Counted from the stretch's first letter, positions 1-48,558 are shown. The stretch is 64,000 nucleotides of DNA from Deferribacteres bacterium (GCA_020633655.1 JACKDF010000011.1:65827-129826); one strand, 5' to 3'. Notes: generated from the letters alone by a model not told the origin. Numbers and translations: made by a program.

Positions 1-136
1 CCCCTGCGGATATTGCCCGCAGCCTCACCAAATCCCACCGTGTGAAATGGTGGTTTCTGGTGTTTTCAGCACTGGCATTCATTGCCGGACTTGGTTGTGC
101 GGTGAAATCTATTGTTCCAGCTTCATAATACAACCA

Positions 137-345
137 GGGCTGAATCAAAACATAAAAATGCTGTATCTGAATTTTTTTGCAAAGTCCATCGGAGGACAGA
201 TCAGCGAAAAAAGCTGGGACAAGGATCTGTTCTGCACAACACTTGATAATGTAACGCAAGTACTGAGTCAAATTTATGTACGCAACTGTCGGGCCCAATT
301 CTTCCAAAAGGGGAATTGACTGGCTAAACTTTCCGCCATAAATCA
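137..345. repeat. Partial, diverged copy of a ~300-bp MITE-like element (family with GGGGCTGWGTCAAAAC termini)
   Basis: The left end GGGCTGAATCAAAACAT starts at 137. The internal blocks GGACAGATCAGCGAAAAAAGC, CTTGATAAT and GGGGAATTGAC are colinear with the full copy at 7119-7426. The right terminus is not recognisable. Confidence 0.5.
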
Positions 346-625: not shown

Positions 626-3313
626 ATGCGTAATGCCTTGCCAATCACCATTTCTCCACAGCTGGACGATAACCAGCGCCGTAGCGCCGTTCGTTTGACC
701 AAAGAATTTAAGGACATGCTCGAGCAGCGGCCGGAAAGCAAAGAATCCGCTGCCGACAAAGAACGCCGTGGGAAAAAGTTCGCGCACACTTTCAACGAGC
801 TTGCCGGCACGCTTGGCGCGGCGCTTTTCGATTGTGTCGAGGGGGGCGCAGAAGCGTTCAAAGAAAAACTCGAAGACGCTGTCCTCAACACTGAATTTCT
901 GCAACTCAACATCACCGGCGACGAAACGATCCAAAGTCTGCCGTGGGAAGTGGCTGCCCACGCCGATCCGAAACTTGGCCTGCTCGCGCACAATCCCGAT
1001 ATTGCTTTTGTCCGCCGCACGCGAAAGTTCAGCAAAGAGTTGCGCAACCTGCCGCCAAAACCGCTGCGCATTTTGCTGTTTATCAGCGCACCGGAGGATC
1101 TTGATCCCGAAAAAGTGCGGTTGGACTACGAAGGCGAAATCAACAAAATTGAAGCGGCTTTGGATGAGGCCATTACTGCCGGAACCGTCGTTCTTGATAT
1201 TGCCGAAGACGGCCGTTTGAGCACCCTGGAGCGTTGGCTTGGCAGTCACACCTACCACGTTGTGCATTTCAGCATGCATGGCAACCGTGGCGAAATCGAT
1301 CTCCTCACCCACGAAGAAAAGCGACCACCGGCCTTGCATTTTGAAGACGAGCAGACAGGCAATGCCCGGGCAGTGAGTCCGGAGGAGCTGGCGGTCTGCT
1401 TCCAAAATGCGCAAAACCGCCCACCGCTGCTGGTGCTTTCCGCCTGCCAGACCGCCGATTTTGATTCCCGCGATGGCATAGCCTCCTTTGCCTCACGCAT
1501 GCACGCTGCCAATTTTGCTAACGTGATCGGCATGCAGCTTTCAGTGGCGGATAGCAGCGCGACAAAATTTGCCGTGGCGCTGTACCAGGCGTTGCTGCAG
1601 GATATGCCCCTCGATGCCGCCATGGCACGGGCACGGGCGGCTTTGAAAGACGACGGTTTGCAATGGAGCATTCCGGTGCTGCACTCCTCGCTGGAAGATC
1701 TGAACTGGAACAACGGCAGCAGCGAAAAAATACCGGCGCGACAACATGTGCGCGATATACAGATCGGGCAGATACCTTTCCGCAGCCAGGGCTTTATTGG
1801 CCGGCGGCGTTTTATCCGCGAGCATTACCGCCCCTGGGCCAGCGGACGCAATCCGCACTTGCTAATTCATGGCATTGGCGGCGTCGGCAAAACCACGCTG
1901 GCGGGGCATTTTGCCCTGCGCCTGCAACGGGAAAAAGCGGACACCGCCATTTTTACCCTGGCGCCGCCCTTTGAACTGGAAACATTGATTGAGCAATTGC
2001 AACAGGCTTGTACCGCTCACAACGTGGTCATTGAGGAAAAACAAAAACAGGCGGCCAGTGAGCCTATGCAGGTGGTTTCCTTGTATGTGCATGCGTTGGT
2101 TCCGGAATTAACCTGCATTTTTATTCTGGATAACCTGGAAGATGCCCTCGCTTTGGCGCCCATGGAATTTTTGCCGGATTTTAGCGAACTCGGCGATCTG
2201 GTTACCCTGCTCATCAGCCAGCCGAATACACACACGGTGCTCACCTGCCGCCACCCCATAAGCAGCGAAAGCGTGCGCGCCCACACCACACCGGCACCCC
2301 TCGGCGACGCCAGCCAGGGCGATATTTTGCGTTTGCTGCGCAACTGGGACTGGCCGCTCGAGGTGACACCAGAAGTGAAAAAGGATATTTACACCACCCT
2401 GGGCGGTAATTTCCGCAGTTTGGAGTGGTGCGCCTGCCTGCTCGGCCAGGCGCGTGACGGCGCCGACAGCACGGCCATGAGCCACAGCGGCTGGAACGCC
2501 CTGAAACAGGCCTACGAAAAAGAGAAAACGAAAACAGCGGAAGTGGCGACGCAACAGGTTGTGCAACATATGCAACAAAATCTGTTGTTTAACCACCTGC
2601 TCGATCTGCTTGCGGAAGAGGAACAAAAATTCCTCGCTAAAATGGCGTTGGAGGAAAACCTGGTGCCGGAAGATGCCGCCACAGCCCTGTGGCACGGCAA
2701 AAAAGCCTCAGCCTTACTCGACCGCTGCACCAGCCTGACCTTGCTGCAGCCCAGTCCGCACCCGTTCGGCTTGCTCTTTTATTTCACCCCGCCACTGGTG
2801 CGCGAACTGCTGCAAAAAAATATCCGGCTGTCCGTTGCAGAGGAAAAGGACGCCCACGCAGCGCTTGCCAGAATCTGGCGCTATTTCGGTGAACACGTAA
2901 CCCGGCTTATCACTGATGATTTATTTGCCATCTCCCATTTTGAACAGGCCGACTTGGTTCAAGAGGCTTTTATCCTGCGTGCTGATTTAGGGGCCCGACT
3001 TGTCGATAACCAGCGCTTTCGTGAGGGTTTTACAATGCTTTTACAATGCTATCAGCAGAATGCTGATGCAATGTCAACGAAGGCTTTAAATGAGCTTGGT
3101 CGATCGTTGCATTTACTAGGAAATTTAGATAGTGCGTTAGAAATCTACCAAAAGAATCTCATCACTCTTCAACAAATCGGCGATAAAAGCGGCGAAGGCA
3201 CGACGCTGAATAATATCAGCCAAATTTTCAAAGCACGGGGCGACTACGACACCAAATCTATGATGCAAAAGGCGACTACGACACTGCGTATCTTGAGCAA
3301 TCGCTTGCGATAA
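626..3313 (+). CDS. CHAT (caspase-like protease) - NB-ARC/STAND NTPase - TPR protein; ORF ends prematurely inside its own TPR repeat array
   Basis: VVHFSMHGN and LLVLSACQTA match the CHAT His/Cys dyad context. LLIHGIGGVGKTTLAGHFA is a P-loop and CIFILDNLEDA a Walker B. The C-terminal repeats are of the form GDKSGEGTTLNNISQI(F/Y)xAxGDYDT. The ORF runs 895 aa and stops at a repeat junction. Confidence 0.85.
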   Translation: MRNALPITISPQLDDNQRRSAVRLTKEFKDMLEQRPESKESAADKERRGKKFAHTFNELAGTLGAALFDCVEGGAEAFKEKLEDAVLNTEFLQLNITGDETIQSLPWEVAAHADPKLGLLAHNPDIAFVRRTRKFSKELRNLPPKPLRILLFISAPEDLDPEKVRLDYEGEINKIEAALDEAITAGTVVLDIAEDGRLSTLERWLGSHTYHVVHFSMHGNRGEIDLLTHEEKRPPALHFEDEQTGNARAVSPEELAVCFQNAQNRPPLLVLSACQTADFDSRDGIASFASRMHAANFANVIGMQLSVADSSATKFAVALYQALLQDMPLDAAMARARAALKDDGLQWSIPVLHSSLEDLNWNNGSSEKIPARQHVRDIQIGQIPFRSQGFIGRRRFIREHYRPWASGRNPHLLIHGIGGVGKTTLAGHFALRLQREKADTAIFTLAPPFELETLIEQLQQACTAHNVVIEEKQKQAASEPMQVVSLYVHALVPELTCIFILDNLEDALALAPMEFLPDFSELGDLVTLLISQPNTHTVLTCRHPISSESVRAHTTPAPLGDASQGDILRLLRNWDWPLEVTPEVKKDIYTTLGGNFRSLEWCACLLGQARDGADSTAMSHSGWNALKQAYEKEKTKTAEVATQQVVQHMQQNLLFNHLLDLLAEEEQKFLAKMALEENLVPEDAATALWHGKKASALLDRCTSLTLLQPSPHPFGLLFYFTPPLVRELLQKNIRLSVAEEKDAHAALARIWRYFGEHVTRLITDDLFAISHFEQADLVQEAFILRADLGARLVDNQRFREGFTMLLQCYQQNADAMSTKALNELGRSLHLLGNLDSALEIYQKNLITLQQIGDKSGEGTTLNNISQIFKARGDYDTKSMMQKATTTLRILSNRLR

Positions 3314-3850
3314 GACAACAAATCGGTGATAAAAGCGGCGAAGGCACGACGCTGAATAATATCAGCCAAATCTATGATGCGAAAGGCGACTACGACACCG
3401 CGCTTTCGTATCTTGAGCAATCGCTTGCCATAAGACAACAAATCGGTGATAAAAGCGGCGAAGGCACGACGCTGATTCAACAAACAAATCGGTGATAAAC
3501 AGCAAATCGGCGAAGGCACGACGCTGAATAATATCAGCCAAATCTATTATGCGAAAGGCGACAGCGACACAGCGCTTTCGTGTCTTGAGCAATCGCTTGC
3601 CATAAGCCAACAAATCGGTGATAAAAGCGGTGAAGGCAAGACGCTGAATAATATCAGCCAAATCTATTATGCGAAAGGCGACAGCGACACAGCGTCGTGT
3701 CTTGAAATCGCTTGCGCGGCAACAAAGGCAGCGGCGAGGCGACTGAATAATATTGGCAGGGTATACAGATCATGGGGAGACAATGAAAAAGCACTTAAGT
3801 ATTACGGACAATCGCTTGCGATTCAACAACAAATCGGCGATAAAAGCGGC
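3170..3850 (+). repeat. Tandem 120-bp (40-aa) TPR-coding repeats, near-identical at DNA level, with scrambled junctions
   Basis: CAACAAATCGG(C/T)GATAAAAGCGGCGAAGGCACGACGCTGAATAATATCAGCCAAAT recurs at 3170, 3317 and 3437, and again near 3610. The 3317 to 3437 spacing is exactly 120 bp. There are aberrant junctions near 3255, 3475-3520 and 3690-3740. Confidence 0.9.
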
Positions 3851-4141
3851 ATGATTGCGACATTGCATAATATGGCCCATATCGCCAAACAGAACGAAGA
3901 TTATAAGCAGGCAGTCGCCTCATTTTCAAAGGCATTGCTACTCGCGCAGGAAACACAACGCCCGTATGATATTTTTGATGAACTGAGAGACCTTGGTATT
4001 CTCCTGTGCCAGCTCGGCAACAAAAAACAGGGATTGCCACTGCTGCAGCAGGCGCTGCAGCTCGGTCAGCAGGTTGGCATCCCCGGCACGGAGCGCATCG
4101 CACAGATCATCGCCCACTTCAGCGGCACAGGCACGGCGTAA
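3314..4141 (+). pseudogene. Frame-broken continuation of the CHAT-STAND gene (remaining TPR units plus C-terminal tail)
   Basis: TPR-coding sequence continues in shifting frames. The last piece is an intact 96-aa ORF at 3851-4141 (MIATLHNMAHIAKQNEDYKQAVASFSKALLLAQE...), which still reads as TPR helices. Confidence 0.7.
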
Positions 4142-4190
4142 ATTCACTAAAAATGGAGCAGGGTGGGTGGGGGGAGGTGCAATAGTGGGA

Positions 4191-5784
4191 AGGTGCGACG
4201 CACTTCACGCCGAAAGGACTGCACATTGTGGAATCTGGTGTACACTCCGGGAGAAAGTGCGTCGCACCTGTGAACCCAACAGGTTACAGAGCTTGTCTGC
4301 ACTGAGCAAAGTCGACGTGCCCGGTTGAACCTGGTCCGGCTTCGGCATGCTCAGCCTCCGTGGTTTTTTACAGACTCCGAACTGCAAATCATAAAATCTG
4401 AACGAAGTGATGACGGCATTATCCACAGGAAGTCATTTTGCTTCGCCGGCTTTCAGCTCGCTTGCCTGCTTTTCGGCATACCGGAATCCCCGGTTTCCTG
4501 CCTCGTACAAAAAGATGCCGGGATTCGATAAAAAGCATCGAACCCGGCATGACGCCAAAAAAAGGAAAGGTGCGACGCACTTCACGCCGAAAGGACTGCA
4601 CAATGTTGAATCTGCTGCACATTCCGGGAGAAAGTGCGTCGCACCTGTGAACCCAACCGTTTACAGAGCTTTTCCGCACTGAGTACTGTCAACGTATGAG
4701 GGTGGGACCTGGTCCGGCTTCGGCATGCTCAGCCTCCGTTGGTTTTTTACAGCCTCCAAACTGCAAATCATAAAATCTGCACGAAGTGACGATGGCTTCG
4801 TCCATAGGAAGTCATTTTGCTTCGCCGGCTTTCAGCTCGGTTGCCCGCTTTTCGGCATACCGGAATCCCCGGGTACTTACCTCGTACAAAGGGATGCCGG
4901 GATTCGATAAAAAGCATCGAACCCGGCATGACTGCCAAAAAAACGAAAGGTGCGACGCACTTCACGCCGAAAGGACTGCACAATGTTGAATCTGCTGCAC
5001 ATTCCGGGAGAAAGTGCGTCGCACCTGTGAACCCAACCGGTTGCAGAGCTTATCTGCACTGAGCACGACCGACGTACCCGGGTTGAACCTGGTCCGGCTT
5101 CGGCATGCTCAGCCTCCGTGGTTTTTTTACAGACTCCGAACTGCAAATCATTAAATCTGCACGAAGTGATGACGGCATTGTTCACAGGAAGTCATTTTGC
5201 TTCGCCGGCTTTCAGCTCGGTTGCCTGCTTTTCGGCATACCGGAATCCCCGGGTGCCTGCCTCGTACAATAAGATGCCGGGATTCGATAAAAAGCATCGA
5301 ACCCGGCATGACTGCCCAAAAAACGAAAGGTGCGACGCACTTCACGCCGAAAGGACTGCACTTTGTGGAACCTGCTGCACATTCCGGGAGAAAGTGCGTC
5401 GCACCTGTGAACCCAACCGGTCACAGAGCTTTTCTGCACTGAGTACTGTCAACGCATGAGGGTGGAACCTGGTCCGGCTTCGGCATGCTCAGCCTCCGTT
5501 GGTTTAAACACTGTTCAGAATGCAAATCATTAAATCTGCACGAAGTGACGATGGCATCGTCCATAGGAAGTCATTTTGCTTCGCCGGCTTTCAGCTCGGT
5601 GGCCTGCTTTTCGGCATACCGGAATCCCCGGGTGCCTGCCTCGTACAAAAAGATGCCGGGATTCGATAAAAAGCATCGAACCCGGCATGACGCCAAAAAA
5701 AGGAAAGGTGCGACGCACTTCATTCTGAAAGAACTGCACAATGTTGAACCTGCTGCACATTCCGGGAGAAAGTGCGTCGCACCT
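4191..5784. repeat. Noncoding tandem array: four ~380-bp units (A-B-A-B pattern) plus a fifth terminal hairpin module
   Basis: AGGTGCGACGCACTT starts at 4191, 4568, 4948, 5328 and 5706, giving periods of 377, 380, 380 and 378 bp. Each copy pairs with AAGTGCGTCGCACCT about 49 nt downstream, a 15-bp perfect stem. Each unit also carries a second conserved hairpin, ATGCCGGGATTCGAT-AAAAAGC-ATCGAACCCGGCAT. Confidence 0.9.
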
Positions 5785-5911
5785 TGTTGCTTCAACTCTC
5801 CCAATTCCTGCCTAAAGCTTCTTCCCCTGTCCTAAAAAATACCTTGCAAAATGACCATAGGCTTGTTATTATTCATCTCAAAATGAACATATGTTCATAA
5901 ATAGGAACGTC

Positions 5912-6337: not shown

Positions 6338-6377
6338 GGTGGTGTCAAAAATACCATGAAAAAATAAAAAGAACACT

Positions 6378-6508
6378 GGGGCTGTGTCAAAACACATTAT
6401 TTTTGACCCAAACATCAATTTTCATAGAGCGAAAGCGTCCTCGCTGAGCGTAACGCACGTTTCACTCGGCGGGACGCCTTCGTTCTATTGATGTTCTGAC
6501 ACAGCCCC
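6378..6508. repeat. 131-bp MITE-like element Y1 with terminal inverted repeats
   Basis: GGGGCTGTGTCAAAAC...GTTCTGACACAGCCCC. The interior is homologous, in inverted orientation, to the copy at 20537-20664. Confidence 0.8.
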
Positions 6509-6651
6509 GAGACTGTCGAAAAACATGCAAATTCGGGCCCTGAGCTTGCCGAAGGGCCCGAATTCGAGCGTGGAAGCGGGCGTTTCGGCACTTCGACTTT
6601 ACTCAGTGCTGGCAAGCTCAACGTCCGGTTTATCCCTTTTTCAATAGTCTC
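6509..6651. repeat. 143-bp hairpin element X1
   Basis: The ends are GAGACTGTCGAAAAA...TTTTTCAATAGTCTC. An internal 11-bp perfect stem is AATTCGGGCCC-N13-GGGCCCGAATT. A near-identical copy lies at 20710-20852, and degenerate reverse copies sit inside every unit of the 4191-5784 array. Confidence 0.8.
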
Positions 6652-7469: not shown

Positions 7470-8615
7470 TTGGCTGATAAATTTCAGACGGGGAAAGTTG
7501 TCACTATCTCATTCGGGCATTTAATTAACGATACCTATTCCGCATTTTTTGCACCCATGTTGCCTCTGCTCATCGCCAAACTTGGTCTCTCGCTTTCCCT
7601 GGTTGGCTTGTTGGATGTTGTGCGAAAAATCCTCCTTATTTAATCCTTTCATCGGTTTGCTCGCCGACAAAATGTGTGTGAAATACATCGTTATCTGGAC
7701 ACCGGGTTTTACAGCCCTGTTCATGAGTTTGGTGGGATTATCGCCTTCGTATCTGATCTTGTTCATTTTGCTGTTTGTCAGCGGCATCAGCTCGACGTTG
7801 TTCCACGTGCCTGCTCCAGTGATGATCAAACACCTTTCCGCCGAAAAAACAGGCGCGGGCATGAGCTATTTCATGTTCGGTGGTGAATTGGCGAGAACCT
7901 TGGGACCGCTCATTATTACCGCTGCAATGTCGTTGTGGGGCTGGAAGGATCCTTTCGCACCATGCCTGTGGGCGTGCTGGCTTCTGCCATTCTCTATTTT
8001 AAGTTGAAAGATATTCAACCGATCAGCCGGAATAATAAGAATAACAAAACCAACGCCGGTGCCACCATTAGGCGGCTTGTGCCATTTTTTATCGCAATTT
8101 CAGCTTACCAATTTTTTCGGGCAGCGATGAAATCCGCCTTAACGCTTTATCTGCCGACCTATCTGGCTAGCAGGGGAGAGTCGCTGTGGGTTGCCGGCAT
8201 TTCCTTGTCCATCATACAACCTGCGGGTGCGGGTGGTGTTTTTCTCACCGGTTTCATCGCCGATAAAATCAGTCACCGCACGATGCTGCTCATTCTCGCG
8301 GTGACCAGCCCTTTTCTCATGTTCGCATTCGTCACTGCCAACAAGGTGCTGATGATACCACTTTTAATTCTCCTCGGTTTTGTTGTTTTTGCCTCCGGAC
8401 CGGTCATCCTGGCGCTTGTTCAGGATACAAACACCGAAAGACCGGCATTTGTTAACGGCATCTATATGACCCTCAACTTTACATTGAGTTCGGTCATGGC
8501 GTTAGCCGTAGGTATTTCGGGTGATCGATTGGGACTTGAAAGTACATTTCAACTGTGCGCCTGGGCGGCGTTTTTGTCATTGCCTTTTGTTTTTCTTTTG
8601 AAAAGGAAGGCGTAA
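7470..8615 (+). pseudogene. MFS transporter (Fsr / fosmidomycin-resistance-like), split into three frames
   Basis: GHLINDTYSAFFAPMLPLLIAKLGLSLSLVG is an Fsr-type N-terminus, and hydrophobic TM segments run throughout. The frame changes at an A5 run (7625-7629) and at a G4 run (7937-7940). Confidence 0.7.
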
Positions 8616-8661
8616 TTTTTGCTAATCTCTGCATGGTGTTTTATTCGTAAGTCCCAATATT

Positions 8662-8771
8662 GGGGCTGAGTCAAAACATGATTTACTGACTGTAACTCGA
8701 CATTTATGTCGAAAGCTTGGTCCTCAAGGAGGGCAACATGAATGTCGCGTTACAAGTTTTGACACAGCCCC
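8662..8771. repeat. 110-bp MITE-like element W (same termini, different core)
   Basis: GGGGCTGAGTCAAAAC...GTTTTGACACAGCCCC. Confidence 0.75.
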
Positions 8772-8821
8772 ATCGCTCACTTGGAGCATCGCATAAATAA
8801 AGCAGAATAAAAAAGGATTAC

Positions 8822-9327
8822 CATGGATCATATCCAAAATCTTTCCCGCGAAAATTTGCTCAAACTCATTGATGTTTACGCCAAAAATTGGCTCGCCCAT
8901 GATGGCTGCTGGTTTTAGCGGCAGAAGAAAAGTATGGCATGGAAACAGCGATGGAGTTGACGCGAAATCGTGGGAGCGATTTGCGGTCTCCGAAGCACGA
9001 CGCATAATGCAAACTTTCGCCATTCCATCTGACGGTGGTTTAAAGGCTCTGGAACAGGCTTTTCAATACCGATTATATGCAGCGATTAACAAACAGGAAA
9101 TTGAGTGGCCTGATGAAAATACCCTGATATTTCGCATGGTCGAATGTCGGGTGCAAAAACGCGTCGGCAAAAAAAATCTGCCGGATTTCCCCTGCAAACA
9201 AGTTGGTATTATCGAATTCAGCCAGTTCGCCAAAACAGTGGATAAACGCATCAAAACAAAGTGCATCGCCTGCCCACCGGATAAAAGTCGGGACTTTTTC
9301 TGTGCCTGGGAGTTTACTTTGGATTGA
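8822..9327 (+). pseudogene. Conserved hypothetical protein (tentatively DUF6125-like), one frameshift near 8915
   Basis: MDHIQNLSRENLLKLIDVYAKNWLAHDGCWF runs into a stop. The sequence continues in the next frame as ...AKSWERFAVSEARRIMQTF...CIACPPDKSRDFFCAWEFTLD. Confidence 0.45.
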
Positions 9328-9346
9328 GGAATTTGATCGATAAAAA

Positions 9347-11743
9347 TTAAAACTTATACCCCAAAACAAAATACACCAAATTCTGCTTCTTGCGCTCTCC
9401 GATGAACACCTTGTCTCCGTGACTAAAGATCACTTCGATTGGCCCTACCAGCGACAGCAATTTTACACCAACTCCAAATCCCGTCACATTGTAGGGATGG
9501 AGTATAATCGGACCCGAATCATATTCCAGGTTGTGGGCGATATTCGCCATGAGTTTAAAGAAGATATCCTTTTTGTATTGGTAGCGGTAATCGAAACGCA
9601 GAATGCCGATTTGCGTACCGAAGAGCTGGTCGTAGTCCAGACCGATAAAATATTCAGGTTTTCCGAGGTTCAGGTATTTGTAAATTGGGACTGTTTTCGT
9701 CGTGCCCCAGTAAGCAAAGAATCGCGTTGTATGCCGCTGGTGAAATGTGTGATAAATATTTGCAGCAGTGGAAAATAAGGCGTAATTCAAATCCGAATGC
9801 AATTCTTTAAAACTGCCTTCGTAATAACTTCGACATCAAATCCGCTTCTCGGTAGCAGCACATCATCCAGCTTGTCAATGGTCATGGACGCCTGCACTTT
9901 GCGCAATTCATGCTTCCAGGTGGGAAAAATAGACGGATCGGAGAATGCAATGTTCGGTGTGACATTCATGTATTCGTGCTGGTATTCGATCTCTGCATTA
10001 AAACATTTTTAAACAGCAAGCCAGAGCCGACCCCAATATAACTTGACCGGTTTTTGTAACTGGCGATGAGATCGCCGCCGCCACCATCGTAAATATTGGT
10101 GGGAATATCCTTGAAACCAAAGTTGAGCAGGGGATAGACAGGCATGCTGATCGTACGGGTCGGGTAATAGATTTTGCTGTTGTAGTTCACCAGTCCGGCA
10201 AATTGCAGTTCTTCTTCAAAGCGCAGACCCGGAATCAGCCAGTTCACTCCGAGAACGTTGACAATCCCCACAAGTTTGTGAAAATCATCGTAACGCAAAC
10301 CAACCCGCATCCGCTGCGTCGGCAATTCCTTGATCTCCAGCTTCAGGGTGACTTTGTTTTCGCCAATGGGCTCGACCTCGTATTTGATGTACTCGAAATA
10401 ACCCAGGCCGTACAGTTCCATTATCCGGCTGTTCAGGGCCTCGGTGTCCAGCTTATTGCCGGGTTGCACGCCCAATAATTGATAAATAAAAGTAAATGGA
10501 AGTACGTCGTTGCCCTCTATGGTGATGCCAAAAATCATCGGCTTTTGTTTTTCTTTCACATGGATGATAAGCCGGATATCGCTTTCTGACAGGGGCACAA
10601 TTTCATAGGAAACATTTTCAAAATAACCGGAAGATTTCATCTCCGCTATGCGGTCTTTTAAAACGATAAATCCAAACGGTCCGTTGGTTTTATGTGCAAT
10701 TGTTGGTAGATAAACTGAAGGGGATGGCAGTGTGCCCGGTGATTTGCAGGTCATAAATTCTTGGTTGTTTGTTCGCCAGGGCAGTGATACCCGGTTCCTG
10801 CATTCGGTGGAGGTGATACTTCTCTTTCAGCTTGAGGAGCTGTTCCACGTTGTCCTGGGCAGCGATACACCCTCGTTGAATTATCTTTACGATCTGATCG
10901 TCATCAAAATCTCCGGGGTGAATGCTCCAGATCCGGTCGTATGTGGATATCGATTAACTTTTCGTTTCTTCGGCGTTGTTCCAGTCCGAGCAAACCAATC
11001 GTCTGTTCAAGAACGGACAGCACAGTGCCGAGCTGCTTGCGTTTTTTCAGCGGGCTCTCAACATCCACAGCAATAACGATGTCTGCTCCCATTTCTTTTG
11101 CGATATTTATGGGTAAATTATTGGAGAATCCACCGTCGATGAGCAGGGAATCGCCGTACTCCACCGGTGTGAAAACGGTTGAATGGCCATTGTTGCCCGC
11201 ATTGCTTTGGCCAGGGAGCCGCTTTTTAAAATCACCTGATTTCCTGTGACCAGATCCACCGCAACACAACGGTAGGGGATGGGCAACTTATCAAAATCGG
11301 TTATGCTTTCGTATGGAAAAGTCAAGCTCGAGAACAACAGCGAAACCTTTTGGCCATAAATTATTCCACTGGGAATGACAGGTTTCACCCCATCCAAACC
11401 AAAGACGAGTTGGAATTTGCCTGTTTCTTTACGCACGAGGTAGGGCAATTCCGTTCTGCGGGGAATGTCGGAAAAGATTTCGTTCCAATCGGTTTTGTGA
11501 ACGATGTGTTCCAGGTCGTGTCCGCTGTAGCCAATGGAATAGAGCGCGCCAGCAATACCACCCATGCTCGCACCAACGATATAATCGATGGGAATTTGCA
11601 GGAATCCAACATTTTAAAGCACCGATATGGGCGAAACCTCGTGCTCCGCCACCGGAAAGCACCAGGCCGATTTTAGGGCGATCTGTCTCCTGGGAGAACG
11701 CAACGGAAGTAAGGAAAAATGAAAAAGAAGAACGCATTTCCAT
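9347..11743 (-). pseudogene. Patatin-like phospholipase - POTRA - Omp85 beta-barrel (PlpD-like, type Vd autotransporter architecture), split into at least 6 frames
   Basis: The gene opens with a signal peptide. LVLSGGGARGFAHIG is the patatin glycine-rich loop and GASMGGIAG the GxSxG motif. A POTRA-like segment lies at 9966-10754. The C-terminus ...NLVYFVLGYKF is an Omp85 beta-signal ending in Phe. Confidence 0.75.
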
Positions 11744-12254
11744 TTCGATTTGCTAATTTTCATGCTCTTGTGGGGCATGCAATTAATCCTCCTGCGTGAA
11801 TTTCCCCGATATGAAAAATTTGTGTGTGTGGAAGATACAGTTTATTGCATCGCAAATCAATTGTTTCGTCAAGTGGTATTTGGAAATTTGTGCTTATCTC
11901 TCGGGATCAATGCCCTGTCAATAGCATGCAGTCAGGGGAAACTTGTTGTTTTAACCGCAAAATGGATAGAAATACTTCAATTTAAATTTTGTCAAAGTCA
12001 CTTTCACTTCAATCCATACATCCCTGAATTTGCAGAGGAATACGTGCCAGGTTCCTCGAAAGCACAGGTTGCGATCGAAAAAATGCCAAAGGCCATAACT
12101 ATTTTTTCCATCTGGTTCGTAAAAATGCCTTGTAACTTTATACAAGCATAAGTATGTTTTAACTCTTCTCTTTAGCAGTATTCAAAAAAGCGCACCAGAA
12201 TGAATTTCTGAGCGCATCTCTTGCAATCAGGGGCTAAATTTCTGGGAGGTGATC

Positions 12255-13729
12255 ATGCGACCTGTCCTCACGAACCGCAATTTATTTCTTTCTATTTCTC
12301 TGTTTTTCTCACATCCAATCTCGTTTCACAAGCCCCAGTTTCATTCAGGGAAGTCGCTGCCATTTATGGTGTTGCCGGTGAAGGCCTTCCTACGGACACA
12401 GTTCGGCCCTCATGGATTTCAATAATGATGATTTGTTGGACATTGGCTTTACGGTAAAAACAGCCAGAAATTTTCTGTTCATTAACCGGGGAAATGGCCA
12501 TTTTGATGAAATTGCCACAGCAGCCGGCCTCAATAAACGCACGGATCAGCGTATTCGCGGCATGTCTGTCGCTGATTATGACAACGATGGCGACCTCGAT
12601 GTCTACCTGACAGCAGGCAGAGCGAGTCAGTTTTACCGAAACAATGGCGATCTAACTTTTACAGATGTGACGAAGGCTGCAGGTGTCGAAGATTTTGGCA
12701 ACGGACTCATCGCCTCCTGGGGAGATTACAACAGGGATGGTTTTATCGATTTATACGTATCGAATTGGGATGACAGCCGGCATGCATTATTTAAAAACAA
12801 AGGAGACGGGACCTTTAAAATGTGACTCAGGAAGCGGGATTGGGCAACGATGCCAATAACCATGTCGGCTTGTGGTTGGACTTTGATAACGATGGTGATC
12901 TGGATATGTTTGTCAGTCGTGCGTTCTACAAGCTTTTTCGCTTGTGGCGCAACAACGGTGATGGAACATTTACCAATATTGCCGGGCGCGCAGGATTGGA
13001 ATGCGATGTCTTCGGCCAGGGCTCCACAACAGCTGACTACGACAATGATGGTTTTCTCGATATTTATGTCGCCAGCTGTTACGAGCGCAACATACTTTTT
13101 CATAACAATGGCGATGGCACATTTACCAACATCGCCGGGCAAGCGGGCGTCGATGGTTCCGGAAGGTCTGTGGATTGTGTGAGTGGTGATTTCAACAACG
13201 ACGGTTGGATGGATATTTATGTTGGCAATTATGACTGGAATCCGGGCGATCCGGATTATGGTGGTAATCCGGAAGGCTACAACAGGTTGTATTGGAACAA
13301 TGGCAACGAGACATTCACCAACGATCCGGGAATTACCGCTGACCGGTCGCGTACAATCGGATCCTCCATCGGCGATCTCAACAACGATGGTTTTGATGAT
13401 CTTTACACGGTCAACTCTTCAACGCTTAACAAACTTTACGAAAATAAAGGCAATTCCAATAACTGGTTGCAGATCCAATTACAGGAGTGAAAAGCAGTCG
13501 CGATGCGATAGGCACAAGAATTGAGCTGGAAATTAATGGGAAGAAACGCATTAAGGAGATTTCAGGAGCAAGTGGTTATTGCTCGCATTCATCGCTCATC
13601 CAGACTTTCGGCCTCGGGTCTGCCAACAATGTTGATCGTATTACAATTAAATGGATAAGTGGCACCGTCGACGAACTAAATAATATTACGGTTAATCAGC
13701 GATTAAAATTAAAGGAAGGCCAGGTTTGA
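12255..13729 (+). pseudogene. FG-GAP/VCBS repeat protein with C-terminal ASPIC/UnbV domain (CRTAC1 family), split into at least 4 frames
   Basis: Repeated DYDNDG(D/F)LD(I/V)Y and NNGDGTFT(N/D) motifs. The C-terminal part reads AIGTRIELEINGKKRIKEISGASGYCSHSSL. Frame breaks lie near 12385, 12825 and 13490. Confidence 0.75.
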
Positions 13730-15493
13730 GTAGCGTTGATTCATTGTTTTTATCGATGTAAATTCTGCTGTTCTCACACCGAATGAAGCGAAGATTTCCT
13801 GGCAGACAAATAAAACTGCGCGAGGATTCGTCCGGTACGGATTAACGGAGGACTTACTCAATACCACCGACTCTACTATTGTACCGGGATTTTTATCTGC
13901 TATAACGCTAGAAAACCTGACTGCAGATACGACGTATTATTTTCTGGTTAGCGCCATGGATACGACGGGGGATGGAATTGAGAGTGAGATGATGTCCTTT
14001 GTCACAACGCTTATCCCTGTCCTTGCCGAGAATATTGCAGCGCAAGCACTCCTGACAGCGAGCAGTGAAAATGAAAATGGAAACAAACGGTGGATAAAGC
14101 AGTCGATGGTTTTGTGGATGGATACCCCGGGGACTACACAAAGAATGGGTTGCAACCACAGATCCGGTGGGTACATGGTTTAATCTGGAATTTGAGGATG
14201 GCCGGGTGATTGATAAAATTATTTTGCACGATCGTATCAATTTTTCGGATCAGATTCTGGAAATGCAGCTCACGTTTGATTCTGGAGATAGAATTATGAC
14301 CGGTCCACTACCAAACGACGGCGCACCCCTTGTTATCGAATTTACACCAAAGACAATAAAAATATTCGTTTGGAAGTGACAAAAGCGCAGGGAAGTTCGG
14401 TAGGTCTTGCGGAAGTTGAAGTATGGCAAGCTGCTAATAGCGTGAATCAACCCAGACTCGAAATTGAGCAGGTAAATGTCACGGATATCGATTCAAATTC
14501 TGCTGTTATTCATTGGCGAACAAGTATCGAGTGCACAGGCGAGTGTTATGTTAACGATGATACACTAACAACCACACTATCCAATTCGCACACTGTATTT
14601 GTCGAAAATTTATTGCCTGGTACTACGTATCCATTTTTAATTTTGTGGCGTCCACTGAAGGAGAGACGGCGCAGTCGGAGGTGCTCTCCTTTACCACAAT
14701 GGAAGCAAGCGTGCCTTCGACACCATTCCTGCGGATACAACCAGCACACCACAGGAATTGTTTGATATCACGGGGAATGGCCTGGTGACCGCGAGCAGTG
14801 AAAAAAGTCCGATGGGGACAAACCGCGGTAAAAGCTGTTGACGGCATTATTGATGGCTATCCCGGCGATTACACCAAAGAATGGGTCTCCGACGAAATGC
14901 CTGTTGGTGTATGGATTCGATTGAGTTTCCCGCAGCCTGTTTTTATTGGTAAAATTGTTGGCTATGACCGCCCAAATTTAAAAGACCACATCCGTGCTTT
15001 TCGCCTCCATTTCAGTGATGGGAGTCATGTAGAATATGGTGAAATGAACAACGACGGAACCTCGTCCATATTTGAATTCGAGCCGCGTCAAACGAATTGG
15101 ATTGAACTCGAAGTGACCGCAGCTGCCGGCGAAAATGTAGGGCTGGCGGAATTTCGGGTCTGGGGCTATATCGCCTTAGGGAAACAGCCGGGAACCGAAT
15201 CAAAGATTTTACCTCAAACCTTTTGTATCAGCAGCAATTTTCCAAATCCTTTCAATGCGATGACACAATTTGAAGTGCATATTCCGGAGCCCGGGTGGCT
15301 GCAAATGGCGATTTTCAATATTAAGGAGAGACCGTACAGGAAATCACAAACGATTTGGTTGCACCTGGCGTGCAGCGATTTCAGTGGGATGGAGAAAGCG
15401 ATACTGCTGGCGTGGTTAGCAGTGGCATGTATTTTCTCAATGCCACATTTCACGGGCAATCTGGCATTTTGCAAAGATACACAGATAAATTAA
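13730..15493 (+). pseudogene. Secreted FN3 / beta-sandwich repeat protein with decayed T9SS C-terminal domain, split into at least 5 frames
   Basis: There are two FN3-like modules (AKISWQTNKTARGFVRYG..., SAVIHWRTSIECTGECYV...). There are two copies of AVDG(F/I)(V/I)DGYPGDYTKEWV...GLAE(V/F)(E/R)VW(Q/G). The tail SSNFPNPFNAMTQFEVHIPEPGW is T9SS-like. Confidence 0.6.
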
Positions 15494-15526
15494 TGTATTT
15501 GAAATAAAAAAATACTGATTCTGAGC

Positions 15527-16366
15527 TCAGAATTTGATTACAGGCAGATACCCGGCTTCCTGTACAAATTTTTGTCCGGCATCGGTCATTGTCCAGTCGA
15601 TAAATTTTTTCACCTGTCCCCGCGGTTTATTCACGGTATATAAATAAAGATAGCGTGTGATGGGATAAGAATCGTTGCGTATATTTTCAGCAGTGATTTC
15701 AATATTTTCCACCCTCGCCAATTTAACGCCTTTGCCATAGGCTAGTCCACCATAACCTATGGCAAAGGGATTGTCTTGAACAGCGCGGACAATTGCTGAG
15801 GTTCCGGCTAAAACCTGCATATCCACAGAATAGGATTCCCCGTGTAAAACATGTTCACGCAGGTAATAACGCGTTCCGGAGTTTGGCGAACGTCCGTAGA
15901 GATAAATGGCCGTATCCTGCCACGCGAATTTGTTCCAGTTGTCCATTTCGCCGGTAAAATTTGTTTGATCTCCTCCAGTGTGAATGTTTCAACCGGATTT
16001 TCTTGATTGAGAAATATGGCAATGGCTTCCTTCGCAACGAGAAAACTGTATCCGAGGGTTCCATGATTTTCTACAATATTTTTCACTTCCTCAGGCCGTA
16101 ACGGTCGCGATGCGGTGCAAATTTCTGCGGCACCGACTGCAAGAGCCTGCGCGCCAGTGGCTGTTCCTCCACCGTCGACGTAAACAGAGATGTTCGGATT
16201 TTGCTGCATATAGGTCGCTGCCCAACGCTTGGCGAGGAAGGAGCGTATCAGACCCTTTGATACGAATAATCGCTTTCGATGGACCTAATTGTGAGGCACA
16301 GCCTGCAAGAAAGAGGAGTAGTGTAATAAGTAGGATTGGACGGATTTTGCTCTGTAAAAGTGTCAT
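15527..16366 (-). pseudogene. pstS: Phosphate ABC transporter substrate-binding lipoprotein PstS family, two frameshifts
   Basis: The lipobox is LLFLAGCAS. Further matches are IKGSDTL, YVDGGGTATGAQAL, FAIGYGGLAY and RYLYLYT. Confidence 0.7.
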
Positions 16367-16376
16367 CGTTCTTCCG

Positions 16377-18056
16377 CTATAGATTGTAGTCTGGCATTAA
16401 GAAACTGTGAATTGGGGTGAAATTCCACGCTTTTTCCGGTATTCCCAGGATTGAAATCAGTCCTAAAAGCAGGTTGCAATGCTGTTGAACTGCGGCATAA
16501 TTGATGGGTTGATCGAGATCATCAAAGGGGTGTGGTATCGTGTTGCTCCCTCAATCGATAAACCGTTGCACACCACTTTCATAGGTTGCATTGTCGTATT
16601 TCATTCCCTCGACAAGGGCAACTGTTGGTATTCCTCACGTGCAAAAGCAATCTGGTCTGATCTTCCAAGCGCATTTGAGTTGGCAAATATGGCAGGCACA
16701 GGTGAATACTCAAGAGAGAATCCTTTTGCCAGCTCCTGCAACAGGTTTTCCATCGTAGAATACTCTGCACCAATACCGACAAAATTTTTAAAGGTATCAA
16801 ACATTGCGATTCCGTCGATGTTCACCGCTGCGTAAGTTTTATGGAGCGGCACACGCGGATGATCAATGTAATATGTGGCGCCGAGCAAGCCTTTTTCTTC
16901 ACCTGTGGTAAATACAAGCAGGATGGATCGTTTAGGTTGTTGTGGTGCAGAGGCGATAATGCGTGCAATTTCGAGGGTGGCGGATACCCCTAAAAGCATT
17001 GTCTGCGACACCGTTGTAAATGGAATCCCCTTCACTGCTGGCCCGATGCCCAAATGATCGTAATGTGCGGCGATTAAAACAAATTGGTTTTTAAGCTTTT
17101 TATCCCTGCCGGGAATGAGCCCGATTACATTCCTGTCGACAAATTCCCATTCCTGAAAAATACCGGAGAATGCCAGTTTCCCGGTCATGTTAAAACTTTG
17201 GATCAGGTCAGCATTTTCCATATCGATGACATGGCGATATTCGAAGGGAGAACCGGAAAATAATGTCGTGGCCATTTCTGGATTGAGTAAAATATTGAGA
17301 TTGGTTGCGCGCGTATAAAGCAGAGATATTATCAAAAGCAAACTGGTGCTGCCAATAAGACCAGGGGGTGTCGCTTTCTGTTCTCGGGTTCGGTATCATG
17401 ATTGTTCCCAGAGCGCCTCGCGCCAGAGCGACCCGTCGTTTCACATCGGGATTGGCATGTATGGTATTGTGCGCGCCTGCGAAATAATCCTCATGCTCAG
17501 AAATTGGTTCGCCAGATAAAAGACTACAATTTTGCCAGCGACATCGATACCCAGGTAATCATTGTAATCATATTCCGGAGCGACAATGCCATAACCTACG
17601 AACGCCATTGGTTGCGGCAAAGCTATAAATGTCGATGCACCACAATCGTAAAGTAAATAATCTTTTCATGTTCGAAAACTCTCTCTTCCCCCGGGCAATG
17701 AAGCGCAACCGGGAATCTTTCATTGCCTTGCTCCCATGCATGGGAATGTTTTGAAAATAAGTGTTATGATCCCCGAAGGGTGTTATACCGAAATCGGCCA
17801 ATTGTGATGCGATATAGTCAGCTGCCAATTTTGCACCTGTGCTTCCGGTTGCACGGCCTTTCAGATCATCACTTGCGAGGTATGCGAGATGGTGTTTTAT
17901 GTTTTCTAGTGATATTGGGGATGGTGAACCGGATTGATCCTGAGCCTGGAGAAATGATACCGCTGCGAACAACACAAGCAAAATGTGTCGAATTAATTTA
18001 TGGATTAAAAGAAAGTGTTGGAGGCTTTTCTCATGCATGAAAGATAAAGTGTCCAT
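16377..18056 (-). pseudogene. M28-family aminopeptidase, at least 4 frameshifts
   Basis: IKHHLAYLASDDLKGRATGSTGAKLAADYIASQL is the M28 N-terminal pattern. Also present are LIAAHYDHLGIG, LLVFTTGEEKGLLGA and GRSDQIAFA. Confidence 0.7.
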
Positions 18057-18266
18057 GGCGAAATATCAACAGAGATATATTGATTGCTTTCATTCTGTCC
18101 GCTAGACTACTTCTTATTTCGGTACAAAAAATAATACGCAACCTCATCACATTTCGAGGTTCAAGGATCATGTACTTATCTTCAGTAGTTTAATTTATTC
18201 GCTCGCGAAAAAATCTCAGGGTATATTCTGCTTCCCTATCACTGAAGCAGTTCACAGAAAAAGTTG

Positions 18267-19481
<1,215 letters not shown>

Positions 19482-19626
19482 TTATCGACTTGTAATCACA
19501 TGTATGTAATCCTTAAACAAATCCGGGAGAGCGCTTTCATTTTCGCTCGAAAATTTGCATTTGCTTCCGGTTCTGTCTGGTCCGCAAATGCGTACAAAGC
19601 GAAGAGATGTGCCTTTTTCGTTGGTT

Positions 19627-20202
19627 CTAAATTATCGTATTGATCAGCGTAATCGTCAATTTTTGCACGAATTCAGTGATAAACGTATCACCCTGCGGGA
19701 CTTCGATTATTTCTTCTCTCCATGCGAAGTACGGTAAATTTGCGTAAGCCAGGGCAATCGATCCATCTTCGGCCAGTTGTTTGAAAACACTTCGTAATTT
19801 TTTTTGCAAAGTGGCCCAATCAATTTCAAAGGGATTTATCGTGAGCAATTTCAGATAGGCGTTATTCGCCTTGCCATATTCCTTCACGGCCAGTGCTGCG
19901 TCTCCGAAGTATCCCCAATAACGGGCAGGAAATTCATCGCCGTAATGTTTTGCTGCCACCTTAAGAATTTCGTATGCATCAGGGTATTTTTTTAAGTGCA
20001 AAGTGCAAACACCTTCATGAATAAAGTACTTGCAATTCGCCAGGGCACCCTGAGCATCGAATTCATCCAGCTCGCGCAAACGGCGTGCAAAGTAAATCCA
20101 GGTTTCTTTGTAATGTTCAGGAGCGCCGCCGAGATCGCGCATTTTTGCTTTCAACTCATTCCAAATTTCAGCGATCTCGCAGGAAGACGAATTTTCACTC
20201 AA
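19627..20202 (-). CDS. Hypothetical protein (helical, possibly TPR-like)
   Basis: 191-aa ORF with a TTG start in the track. I recognise no family motif. Confidence 0.4.
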   Translation of the reverse strand: MSENSSSCEIAEIWNELKAKMRDLGGAPEHYKETWIYFARRLRELDEFDAQGALANCKYFIHEGVCTLHLKKYPDAYEILKVAAKHYGDEFPARYWGYFGDAALAVKEYGKANNAYLKLLTINPFEIDWATLQKKLRSVFKQLAEDGSIALAYANLPYFAWREEIIEVPQGDTFITEFVQKLTITLINTII

Positions 20203-20536: not shown

Positions 20537-20664
20537 AGGCTGTGCCAAACATAATAAAACGAAAGCGCCTCGCTTAGTGGAAAATGCGTTACGCTCCGCG
20601 AGGATGTTTTCACTCTGTGAGAATTGATGTTTGGATCAAAATTAATGCGTTTTGACACAGCCCC
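20537..20664. repeat. 128-bp MITE-like element Y2 (inverted relative to Y1)
   Basis: AAGGCTGTGCCAAAC...GTTTTGACACAGCCCC. The interior aligns to the reverse complement of 6378-6508. Confidence 0.75.
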
Positions 20665-20709
20665 ATCATTTACTCAATACAAAGCAATGAATAATCCAGG
20701 AACGCAATT

Positions 20710-20852
20710 GAGACTGTCGCAAAATACGCAAATTCGGACCCAGAGCTTGCCGAAGGGCCCGAATTCGAGCTTGGAACCGGGCGTTTCGACACTTCGACTT
20801 TACTCAGTGCAGGCAGGCTCAACGTCCGGTTTATCCCTTTTTCAACAGTCTC
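20710..20852. repeat. 143-bp hairpin element X2
   Basis: GAGACTGTCGCAAAA...TTTTTCAACAGTCTC. It is near-identical to 6509-6651, including the GGGCCCGAATT stem arm. Confidence 0.8.
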
Positions 20853-21336: not shown

Positions 21337-22506
21337 ATGTTAAATATTGCGTTATTCGGCCCCCCTGGAGCGGGAAAAGGTACACAATCGGAATTTCTGA
21401 TTGAGGAATACAATCTCTTTTATATTTCCACGGGCGATTTGTTACGAAAAGAGATTGCTAACAAAACCAGTTTAGGTATGCAGGCACGGGATATTATCGC
21501 CTCAGGCGGGCTGGTTTCCGATGAAATAATCGTACAGATTATCGAAAAAACCATTACGGAAAATCCTGACGCTGATGGTTTTCTCTTTGATGGCTTTCCA
21601 CGCACTTACATTCAGGCTTACATTCTCAGTGGCTTGATGATTAAACTCAATACAACGCTCAGTTGTCTCATCAGCCTGAAATTACCGGAAGAGGAATCTG
21701 TTGCACGATTGCTGAAACGTGGCGAAACCTCGGGGCGCTCCGATGATAATGAACAGGTAATTCGCAACCGCTTGCGGGAGTATTATGAGAAAACACTTCC
21801 TGTACTTCGTTTTTATAAAGAGAGGGGTATACTTTATGAGATTGACGGCAGTAAAAGTATTGATGATGTGAAAGCGCAAATTCGTGCTGTTATCAGCGCA
21901 GAATTGAGCAACCGCCTGTTTAACCTGGTAATATTTGGGTATCCGGGTTCCGGGCGAGGTTCTCAGGGTAAAAATTTAGCGGAAAAATATGGTCTTGAGT
22001 ATGTTGCAACGGGTAAAATGCTTGAGGACGAGATTGCAAAAAAAACTGTTCTGGGAAGGAAAGTTGAAAAATATTACAACAGCGGCCAACTTGTTCCAGA
22101 TGAAATTGTGGTGCAATTGATCGAGAAGAAACTCAAGAGACACAAAGAGGTGAAAGGCTTTATTTTCAAAGGTTTTCCCCGCACTTTAGTGCAATCATAC
22201 ATACTTGATGGTATGTTAAAAAAGATCGGAACACAGATTTCGCAAATTCTTGAAATTGAAGTACCGACCTTAAAGCTCATCGAGCGGCTTGATACACGCA
22301 GCAAAACAGATAAATGCATGCCTTACGATTCAAGTACAGCGAAAATTGTCAAGCGTTTGGAAGAGCACGAAGAAAAGACGGTTTCCGTCATCGAAAAGTA
22401 CAAGCAATTGCATGACGTCACTAATATTGATGGCAGGGGGACGTTTAATGAAGTTTCTGAAAGAATAATTACTGAAGTAGAAAAATTGATGCGAAAGCTT
22501 CGGTAA
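21337..22506 (+). CDS. adk: Tandem adenylate kinase fusion (canonical short-LID ADK + divergent second ADK-like module)
   Basis: Module 1 carries FGPPGAGKGTQ, STGDLLRKEI, DGFPRT and GRSDDNEQVIRNRL. Module 2, from about nt 21919, carries FGYPGSGRGSQG, ATGKMLEDEI and KGFPRT, and its LID segment lacks the RxDD pattern. Confidence 0.85.
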   Translation: MLNIALFGPPGAGKGTQSEFLIEEYNLFYISTGDLLRKEIANKTSLGMQARDIIASGGLVSDEIIVQIIEKTITENPDADGFLFDGFPRTYIQAYILSGLMIKLNTTLSCLISLKLPEEESVARLLKRGETSGRSDDNEQVIRNRLREYYEKTLPVLRFYKERGILYEIDGSKSIDDVKAQIRAVISAELSNRLFNLVIFGYPGSGRGSQGKNLAEKYGLEYVATGKMLEDEIAKKTVLGRKVEKYYNSGQLVPDEIVVQLIEKKLKRHKEVKGFIFKGFPRTLVQSYILDGMLKKIGTQISQILEIEVPTLKLIERLDTRSKTDKCMPYDSSTAKIVKRLEEHEEKTVSVIEKYKQLHDVTNIDGRGTFNEVSERIITEVEKLMRKLR

Positions 22507-47574: not shown

Positions 47575-48438
47575 CTACTTTTTTATTAAATCCTGAATAA
47601 TTGGAGTTACGATTAGTTCCATCGCTAATCCCATCTTGGGTCCGGGAACGACGATGGTATTTCTCCGGGAAATAAACGAGCCCTCAAGCATCAGTTTTAA
47701 ATAGGTCAGGTCGATATCGTATTCTTTGATTATTTCCTTTTTAATACGAATCACTACCAGGCTCTCATCAGCCGAAGGCACATCCCGGGCGATGAACGGA
47801 TTCGATGTATCAACTGTTGGAATGCGTTGGAAATTAATGTCGGTCCGAGAAAATTGTGGTGTAATGAAATCGACGTAATCATCCATGCGTGTCTTAATTG
47901 TATTAACAACCTCCTCTGCGGTGTATCCTCTGTGTGAAATATCTCGTTGTATCTTTTGAATCCATTCGAGATTTATGATTGGAACGACGCCAATCAATAA
48001 ATCCACAAAAGGTACGACTTCTTCAACGCCACCGTGCAAACCCTCATAAAATAACATATCATATTCCGGCTTGATCTCTTCCCATGGTGTAAATTGTCCA
48101 GGTTTGAGCTCAGGCCAGGCAGCGGCTTCCGCATCGGAATGCAAATAAAAACGTCTTTTCCCACTCCCGGTACTCTTGAAGGTTTTAAAAAGTTGAGCCA
48201 GCTCATCAATAAGGTTGGCATTTTTGCTAAAGTGACTGCAGTATTTACCGACCTTGATCGCTTGGGCAACCCGTTCTTTCATTTCTTTTCTGTCGTATCG
48301 ATGAAAACTATCTCCTTCGATAAAAACTGCTTTGATATTTTCTCTTAACATGACATGACCAAACGCAGTTTTTACCGTTGTCGTTCCTGCTCCCGATGAA
48401 CCGGTAATTGCTACAACAGGGTATTTATTTTTATCCAT
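47575..48438 (-). CDS. prk: Phosphoribulokinase, bacterial class I type
   Basis: AITGSSGAGTTTVK, FIEGDSFHRY, LFYEGLHG, VVPIINLEWIQKIQRD, TDINFQRIPTVDTSNPF and ADESLVVIR are colinear with proteobacterial CbbP/PrkA from memory. Confidence 0.9.
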   Translation of the reverse strand: MDKNKYPVVAITGSSGAGTTTVKTAFGHVMLRENIKAVFIEGDSFHRYDRKEMKERVAQAIKVGKYCSHFSKNANLIDELAQLFKTFKSTGSGKRRFYLHSDAEAAAWPELKPGQFTPWEEIKPEYDMLFYEGLHGGVEEVVPFVDLLIGVVPIINLEWIQKIQRDISHRGYTAEEVVNTIKTRMDDYVDFITPQFSRTDINFQRIPTVDTSNPFIARDVPSADESLVVIRIKKEIIKEYDIDLTYLKLMLEGSFISRRNTIVVPGPKMGLAMELIVTPIIQDLIKK

Positions 48439-48494
48439 GTTTGGATCCTATCGCTTACGAATTTTAACTTAGTTCATTGAATGTTGACTTTTAC

Positions 48495-48545: not shown

Positions 48546-48558
48546 AATTCTTGAAAGA

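Follow-up and report, generated by a model that had tools for sequence, protein, structure and literature searches.

We analysed a tandem array of about 1.6 kb in a 64,000-nt stretch of DNA from Deferribacteres bacterium (GCA_020633655.1, JACKDF010000011.1:65827-129826); the whole stretch is referred to as the window, and positions are counted from its first letter. The window is an ordinary FCB-group chromosome segment with type IX secretion tails, ribosomal genes and Calvin-cycle genes. Tandem Repeats Finder delimited 4190-5784 as 4.2 copies with a period of 380, 90% matches and a score of 2581. An arm search located AGGTGCGACGCACTT and its complement at ten positions, which form five inverted pairs (4191/4255, 4568/4632, 4948/5012, 5328/5392 and 5706/5770) with 49 nt between the arms of each pair; the resulting hairpin is designated H1. 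Within the 64 kb, no site matching either arm with up to two mismatches was found outside the array, and shuffled sequences gave 0.08 matches. Both searches confirmed what an earlier note on this DNA had described, namely five hairpins with identical arms and an array that begins and ends with a hairpin. The features of the array are as follows.

4190..5785, no strand assigned: whole tandem array, 4.2 units of 377-380 bp, with an H1 hairpin at both ends
4191..4269, no strand assigned: H1 copy 1, 15-bp arms AGGTGCGACGCACTT / AAGTGCGTCGCACCT around a 49-nt interior, aligning with the Calditrichota H1 family
4278..4377, minus strand (reverse to the X element at 6509-6651): decayed X-type mobile-repeat body of unit 1, ending in the terminal-repeat-like TTTTTTACAGACTC; units 2-4 are homologous at equal offset
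4378..4514, no strand assigned: 137-nt stretch of unit 1, including a 5-bp mini-hairpin (GAYGA/TYRTC), with no relative found beyond the array
4515..4550, minus strand: H2 copy 1, a 14/15-bp hairpin with a bulge, ahead of CTTTTTG on that strand
4551..4566, no strand assigned: linker GACGCCAAAAAAAGGA, on the minus strand a T7 run directly after H1
4568..4646, no strand assigned: H1 copy 2, from the arm-pair search
4894-4929, 5274-5309 and 5653-5688, minus strand: H2 copies 2-4, the same hairpin
4948..5026, no strand assigned: H1 copy 3, with the same interior as copy 2
5328..5406, no strand assigned: H1 copy 4, from the arm-pair search
5706..5784, no strand assigned: H1 copy 5, terminal, with private substitutions in the left part of the interior

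Each unit contains H1 (~80 bp), a decayed X-type miniature transposon, a 137-nt piece of unassigned origin and a second hairpin, H2. H2 consists of ATGCCGGGATTCGAT-AAAAAGC-ATCGAACCCGGCAT, is bulged and was found in four of four units, as the earlier note had stated. On the minus strand it has a G+C-rich 14/15-bp stem followed by CTTTTTG, and H2 is an ordinary intrinsic terminator on that strand. No gene precedes H2 inside the array. A dehydrogenase-like gene of a Calditrichota genome, CLD5, is followed 30 nt past its stop codon by a hairpin plus T-run 93% identical to H2 (locus L071:253-300).

The X elements at 6509-6651 and 20710-20852 are 92% identical to each other. The reverse X-like stretch of unit 1 had a local score of 46, compared with a shuffle maximum of 24, and the stretches in units 2-4 were weak but collinear; a degenerate reverse X copy, claimed earlier for every unit, is therefore clearly significant in unit 1 alone. 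The linker GACGCCAAAAAAAGGA may be the other end of an X-type repeat that holds H1. With an X-like stretch 3' of H1 and an end-like linker before it, H1 appears to be set inside an X-type element. In the 137-nt stretch, both sides of the mini-hairpin GAYGA/TYRTC change between unit types. When relatives of the spacers were sought by BLAST in the fetched H1 loci, H2 was the sole match, and a search of a metagenome collection for the 380-bp unit, using a 22-mer of an invariant block, returned only four chance matches. The sequence shortly before H1 copy 1 (window 4143-4189, GGGAGGTGCAATAGTGGG) includes AGGTGC, the first 6 nt of the H1 arm, which may be a remnant of an earlier H1 copy.

The units are 88-92% identical to one another, and 64 of the 380 columns of their alignment are variable and clustered. 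The informative columns among the four units comprised 12 (+2) of the ABAB type, seven of the ABBA type and one of the AABB type. The A-B-A-B pattern with a ~760-bp higher-order duplication, as proposed in the earlier note, is thus backed by the largest class of columns, but the ABBA and AABB columns do not conform to it. These mixed columns, together with the identities between units, indicate that the units are mosaics, as gene conversion or unequal exchange predicts. The alignment also contains invariant non-hairpin runs of 26-40 nt that equal the arms in constancy, so that the array alone does not show special selection on the stems.

The array is non-coding, in agreement with the earlier reading. 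Stop codons occur in all six frames; no frame had an excess of synonymous differences among the four units; a Pfam search of three open reading frames (ORFs) in the array returned no match; and an array ORF of 113 aa had no homologue among 5.8 billion proteins. In Rfam 15, the window, searched at E <= 10, gave just microRNA-model noise far below threshold, and H1 in 18 related loci gave nothing at the gathering threshold. A promoter scan limited to the sigma-70 type found no promoter-like site inside the array.

H1 is a widespread multi-copy intergenic palindromic repeat, with a 15-bp inverted repeat around ~50 nt of unstructured, family-specific sequence. Scanning one genome per species with the pattern GCGACGCACTT-N40-60-AAGTGCGTCGC yielded at least 113 loci (L numbers below) in Anaerolineales and other Chloroflexota, Calditrichota, KSB1, Ignavibacteriales, Cytophagia and a few other groups; no viral contig with the hairpin was found. 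Among the matches listed, many copies in one genome are common, examples of H1-rich genomes being Calditrichota CLD5 (QQUM01), Anaerolineales MAG_39 (JABWBV01) and Cytophagia CAZIKB01. H1 is mostly solitary, and the interiors span 40-59 nt with a mode of 50, being alike within a family and unrelated between families. Interiors are not self-complementary (mean z -0.3), which ruled out the possibility that the interior forms a long hairpin. The search pattern left the four outer stem positions free, and the stem statistics cover 109 distinct copies. Complementarity was 84-95% at the outer positions 1-4, 39% at position 5 (one step outward of the stem) and 13% just inside the stem, and this sharp drop on both sides indicates that the stem is exactly 15 bp long. 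One outer position covaries (G-C 65, T-A 23, C-G 5, A-T 4), and G-T mismatches are no commoner than other mismatches. Each arm is itself a near-palindrome, A-N-GTGCG-A-CGCAC-T-T, whose central base was A on the 5' arm and T on the 3' arm in nine further arm pairs found without fixing that base. The centres of the two arms are 61-74 bp apart, with no helical phasing, and no conserved position, including a GTAG or CGTC tag, was found beyond the 15-bp stem. The copies in the window belong to a Calditrichota sub-family whose interior is kept in sequence (CCGAAAGGNCTGCA); their structure consists of the 15-bp stem and a 3-bp CCG/CGG extension, and nothing further. A text search of the literature for the arm sequence gave only two chance occurrences, in papers on unrelated topics. 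The terminal repeat of IS5 (GGAAGGTGCGAA) has only 9 nt in common with the arm, which we take to be a coincidence.

The selection on the palindrome that the earlier note had deduced from drifting loops can be judged accordingly. Constraint is supported by the presence of the same arms in at least 113 loci of distant phyla and by the covariation in the outer stem, but the drifting-loop argument is weak inside the array. Arm conservation characterises the H1 family, which either needs the inverted repeat or is recognised by it; it is no evidence for a function of the array.

Nearly all listed H1 loci fall between ORFs, and the strands of the flanking genes (+/+ 24, -/- 24, -/+ 15, +/- 14) are close to those of random intergenic DNA. 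No gene family was common to the listed H1 neighbourhoods, apart from frequent secreted-protein tails and ABC ATPases, indicating that the array has no link to the DUF134 or CHAT-STAND genes. Specifically, nothing ties it to the CHAT-STAND gene, 3' of which it lies and for which the earlier note had left room for a role. Direct-repeat matches at the arm ends were at the chance level for k = 2-8 (0/112 above chance), and H1 as a transposon with its own target duplication was therefore rejected. The earlier note had named a unit that is a common dispersed repeat as a point against its own reading, and half of this applies: the hairpin is common and dispersed in any kind of intergenic region, but the 380-bp unit was not found elsewhere.

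Some H1 copies lie within larger carriers. Family A, in Anaerolineales, has the ends GGGTGTGTTTCA and 9-bp target duplications (L030, L032), and family C, in Cytophagia and KSB1, has the ends CCTGAATAATTCA, with 4-bp duplications in six copies and 3 of 4 bp in a seventh; both are true miniature transposons with H1 at their centre. As the two carrier types differ in their ends and in the length of their duplications, a single transposase lineage is inadequate to explain them. In L012 (~60-206, minus strand), family-A ends enclose another inner module, in which two copies of AGACCTC(G/C)GAGGTCT stand ~66 nt apart in an H1-like architecture. Tandem clusters of H1 also occur elsewhere, with three copies at 100-bp spacing in L051 and others in L057, L085, L020 and L111 (spacings of 100-125 bp), and genes with H1 on both sides are present in L102 and L091. 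Miniature versions with loops of 3-4 nt were found in L025, L090 and L111. Those at L025 4779-4815 and L090 269-305 are palindromes of 33-34 nt made of the arms alone, and at L111 970-1131 the left arm forms a 22-bp tandem repeat that precedes a hairpin with a 3-nt loop.

In CLD5, 13 of the 16 H1 copies found by a shared left-flank motif lie 7-21 nt upstream of a ribosome-binding site and start codon. A block, GTGTCAAAA-N8-ATGAAAAAAT(G/A)AA, occurs at window 6342-6375 and in the CLD5 loci L019, L024, L026, L048, L064, L065, L071 and L085. In CLD5 it adjoins H1 on its upstream side, where ACTTAGCC is followed directly by AGGTGCG, and the ribosome-binding site and start codon of unrelated genes come at most ~20 nt after H1. 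This block could be a transposon end, or a portable promoter with a leader. H1 as a promoter cassette was not retained as an explanation, because the downstream genes are unrelated, the block is transposon-end-like and family C has no orientation bias. In three of 13 CLD5 loci, the H1 interior runs opposite to the flanking block and gene (L080, L028 and L064, compared with L065, L098, L071 and others), for which an inversion between the arms, or insertion in one or the other orientation, could account. H1 as an invertible switch was likewise not adopted, since no flipped interiors were found in families A-C.

We interpret the array as a lineage-specific tandem amplification of non-coding intergenic repeat debris through recombination between flanking H1 copies, and assign this reading a probability of roughly 0.55. 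Amplification would have started from a ~300-bp segment of repeat debris and a terminator with an H1 copy on each side. Acting as direct repeats, the H1 copies would have permitted unequal homologous recombination or replication slippage to multiply the segment, and a later two-unit duplication with gene conversion would have given the mosaic A-B-A-B / A-B-B-A pattern. Exchange between flanking H1 copies accounts for an array that begins and ends with H1, and for the similar H1 clusters in other genomes. No integrase or transposase was found among the 52 ORFs of the window. The array is real and non-coding, and it is probably inert. Its anatomy and non-coding nature, the dispersal of H1 and the identity of H2 as a terminator are established by the data; we infer both the mechanism of amplification and the lack of an array function.

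Several points weigh against this interpretation. In the internal H1 copies, the left part is that of copy 1 and the right part that of copy 5, the reverse of the hybrid that a single crossover would leave; either the history was more complex, with several exchanges, or the terminal copies acquired private changes later. The long invariant blocks (those within the 137-nt piece and block 4330-4362) could result from constraint and not from recent homogenisation. In addition, the exact conservation of the arms across phyla and their self-palindromic form suggest a specific binding partner, to which a five-site array might matter.

The strongest rival, which we regard as possible but unlikely, is an array of sites acting at the DNA level, where the 15-bp self-palindromic arms would be operator-like sites for a dimeric DNA-binding protein. 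Candidate binders would be a transposase, a recombinase, a Y1-HUH (RAYT/TIRYT-like) enzyme or a nucleoid protein, and ten sites in 1.6 kb could provide high-avidity binding, a sponge, an insulator or a recombination locus. The near-perfect palindrome of each 15-bp arm, the sharp stem boundaries, the invariance of the arms across phyla with variable, non-self-complementary interiors and the lack of preference for G-T mismatches are all consistent with such sites, which a protein might read as duplex or as a folded DNA hairpin; so are the second inner module of the same architecture in L012 and the mini-versions with 3-4-nt loops. Self-complementary terminal-repeat families that lie next to genes for Y1 transposases are also known to occur as dimers and in clusters (Di Nocera et al. 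2013, PMC3733652). However, neither the window nor the listed loci (at least 113) yielded a candidate protein close to H1, the spacing between arms lacks helical phasing, and a symmetric dimer would not impose central bases that are fixed as A in the 5' arm and T in the 3' arm.

It is doubtful that the array encodes functional RNA, either as four paralogous ~300-nt small RNAs, most plausibly from the minus strand, or as one structured RNA, in which the 15-bp H1 stem would contribute to stability or processing. Two terminator-like structures close each unit on the minus strand, H1 followed by T7 and H2 followed by T5; however, the T7 run is explained as an X-type repeat end, and the array has no sigma-70-type promoter-like site and no Rfam match. 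The array folds better than shuffled sequences on both strands (z -6.7 and -5.7), but these scores are accounted for by the inverted repeats themselves. The 5-bp mini-hairpin changes on both sides (T-A to C-G), with G-U tolerated on the plus strand alone, yet this sole covariation inside the array represents one event shared by descent, and the stem covariation across loci is equally expected of DNA inverted repeats. The position of H1 in 5' leaders of CLD5 would also suit an RNA role, but the genes downstream there are unrelated, and outside CLD5 the orientation and position of H1 relative to genes are unbiased, as is its orientation in family C.

A bolder proposal, which we hold to be speculative and decidedly improbable, is that the H1 arm pair is recognised by an undescribed enzyme or factor that binds hairpins or DNA and is common to the FCB group and Chloroflexota; the site would have been captured repeatedly by miniature transposons, and recombination at it would have built the array. 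An integron-like cassette array, formed by site-specific recombination at folded hairpins with H1 in the role of attC and no integrase nearby, would match the site-segment-site layout with H1 at both ends, the conserved ends and variable centre as in attC and the genes flanked by H1 on each side (L102, L091), but it is very improbable given that H1 lacks RYYYAAC/GTTRRRY core sites, that its stems are perfect and without extrahelical bases, that the would-be cassettes are paralogous and non-coding, and that no integrase lies within 64 kb and H1 is mostly solitary. There is similarly little chance that the number or order of units is an assembly artefact: the short-read contigs of the same organism near the locus, located by exact-protein look-ups, are 0.5-1.4 kb long with none spanning the array, and many genes at 1-20 kb of the window are split, consistent with indel errors, but collapse or expansion does not produce units that diverge by 8-12% with structured site patterns. 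Samples that contain the organism include ERZ28655779 and ERZ27309388.

The earlier comparison with modular composites of repeats of the BIME or BOX kind was supported as a general likeness. Like E. coli BIMEs and pneumococcal BOX elements, the array is a modular, non-coding, intergenic palindromic composite of variable copy number that originates by recombination or slippage. In contrast, its unit measures 380 bp instead of tens of bp, its linker is itself a mosaic of another mobile repeat and a terminator, and H1 is unrelated in sequence to REP (repetitive extragenic palindromic) sequences or to boxA/B/C. REP sequences are imperfect palindromes of 20-40 nt that fold alone, with an 8-9-bp stem and a 4-5-nt loop, and REPINs are reportedly inverted pairs of short palindromic repeats around a spacer, as described by Bertels and Rainey. 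In form, H1 is closest to REPINs and to the Y1-associated (RAYT/TIRYT) terminal-repeat families. It too pairs a short palindromic sequence with its inverted copy across a spacer that is less conserved, with arms that are 100% complementary, and it is extragenic and multi-copy, occurring as singlets, dimers and ordered clusters without target duplication at the repeat ends. REP sequences carry an unpaired GTAG or CGTC tag at one end (PMC3733652), whereas H1 has neither tag. Furthermore, the 5-bp half-sites that flank the single central base of an H1 arm do not give a palindrome long enough to fold alone; a typical H1 is 79 nt long with a 49-nt unpaired interior, the 33-34-nt palindromes of L025 and L090 being rare; and no RAYT/TIRYT gene was found beside any H1 copy, either among the 52 window ORFs or in the fetched loci. 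REP sequences are usually specific to a species or genus, whereas the arms of H1 are identical across phyla.

H1 also resembles miniature inverted-repeat transposable elements (MITEs) such as Correia, ERIC and RUP, in that it is small and non-coding, has terminal inverted repeats and dozens of intergenic copies, and can occupy 5' leaders or sites behind genes; its A and C carriers have terminal repeats and target duplications. Unlike a MITE, H1 has no target duplication of its own, only the larger carriers having one (A 9 bp, C 4 bp), and at least two carrier types, whose ends differ, contain it as their inner module. The H1 array shares with attC sites and their cassettes the conserved paired ends, variable centre, site-segment-site order and cross-phylum distribution, but the arms AGGTGCGACGCACTT / AAGTGCGTCGCACCT lack the core-site consensus and pair perfectly over 15 bp, the array has no ORF cassettes, and the window has no Phage_integrase match. 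CRISPR arrays have short direct repeats and unique spacers of similar length, whereas the spacers here are 300 nt long and 88-92% identical to each other. H1 is thus a MITE-like module without its own target duplication and is no member of the REP, attC, CRISPR or Rfam families.

Other features were noted elsewhere in the window. A 131-bp miniature transposon at 6378-6508 has 17-nt terminal repeats (GGGGCTGTGTCAAAACA); part of it recurs, inverted, at 20585-20664, and 16 nt of an end at 8756-8771. The element lies near X at both loci, abutting X at 6509 and standing 45 bp away (20665-20709) at the second, and its inner part recurs in the CLD5 loci L071, L073 and L098. Many genes are split within 626-4141 and 7500-20200. 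The CHAT-STAND-TPR gene is spread over two or more ORFs (including 626-3313 and 3851-4141), the gene of an MFS transporter is broken at ~7935-8007, and further fragments correspond to Omp85/POTRA, D-Ala-D-Ala ligase, M28 peptidase, PBP-like and FG-GAP genes. The split genes represent either pseudogenes or indel errors that arose in a long-read assembly. At 3252-3647, where the CHAT-STAND gene encodes TPRs, tandem repeats with periods of 120/172 reflect recent duplication of TPR units. A Calvin-cycle cluster on the minus strand (47575-52140) contains phosphoribulokinase, the RuBisCO large subunit (48559-49953), a glpX-type FBPase, ribulose-phosphate epimerase and RpiB, and the genome is apparently a Calditrichota-like member of the FCB group. 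Finally, an ORF of 389 aa at 21337-22503 has two adenylate kinase domains (two Pfam ADK stretches), representing a duplicated or fused adk.

The array in itself is of modest significance, being one more case of tandem amplification that is seeded by dispersed palindromic repeats and interrupts short-read assemblies. Greater interest attaches to the H1 module, since an identical 15-bp inverted repeat is present in Chloroflexota and several FCB phyla, inside unrelated miniature transposons. Ordinary evolution of REP sequences or MITEs does not predict this combination of cross-phylum arm identity, a sharply bounded stem, self-palindromic arms and unrelated carriers, which points either to a conserved partner that reads the sequence or to extensive transfer of the module between phyla. 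The conservation of the arms across phyla and in unrelated carriers is the part worth pursuing. If an enzyme or factor does read H1, it would constitute a new site-specific system, with a logic comparable to that of attC/IntI or REP/RAYT.

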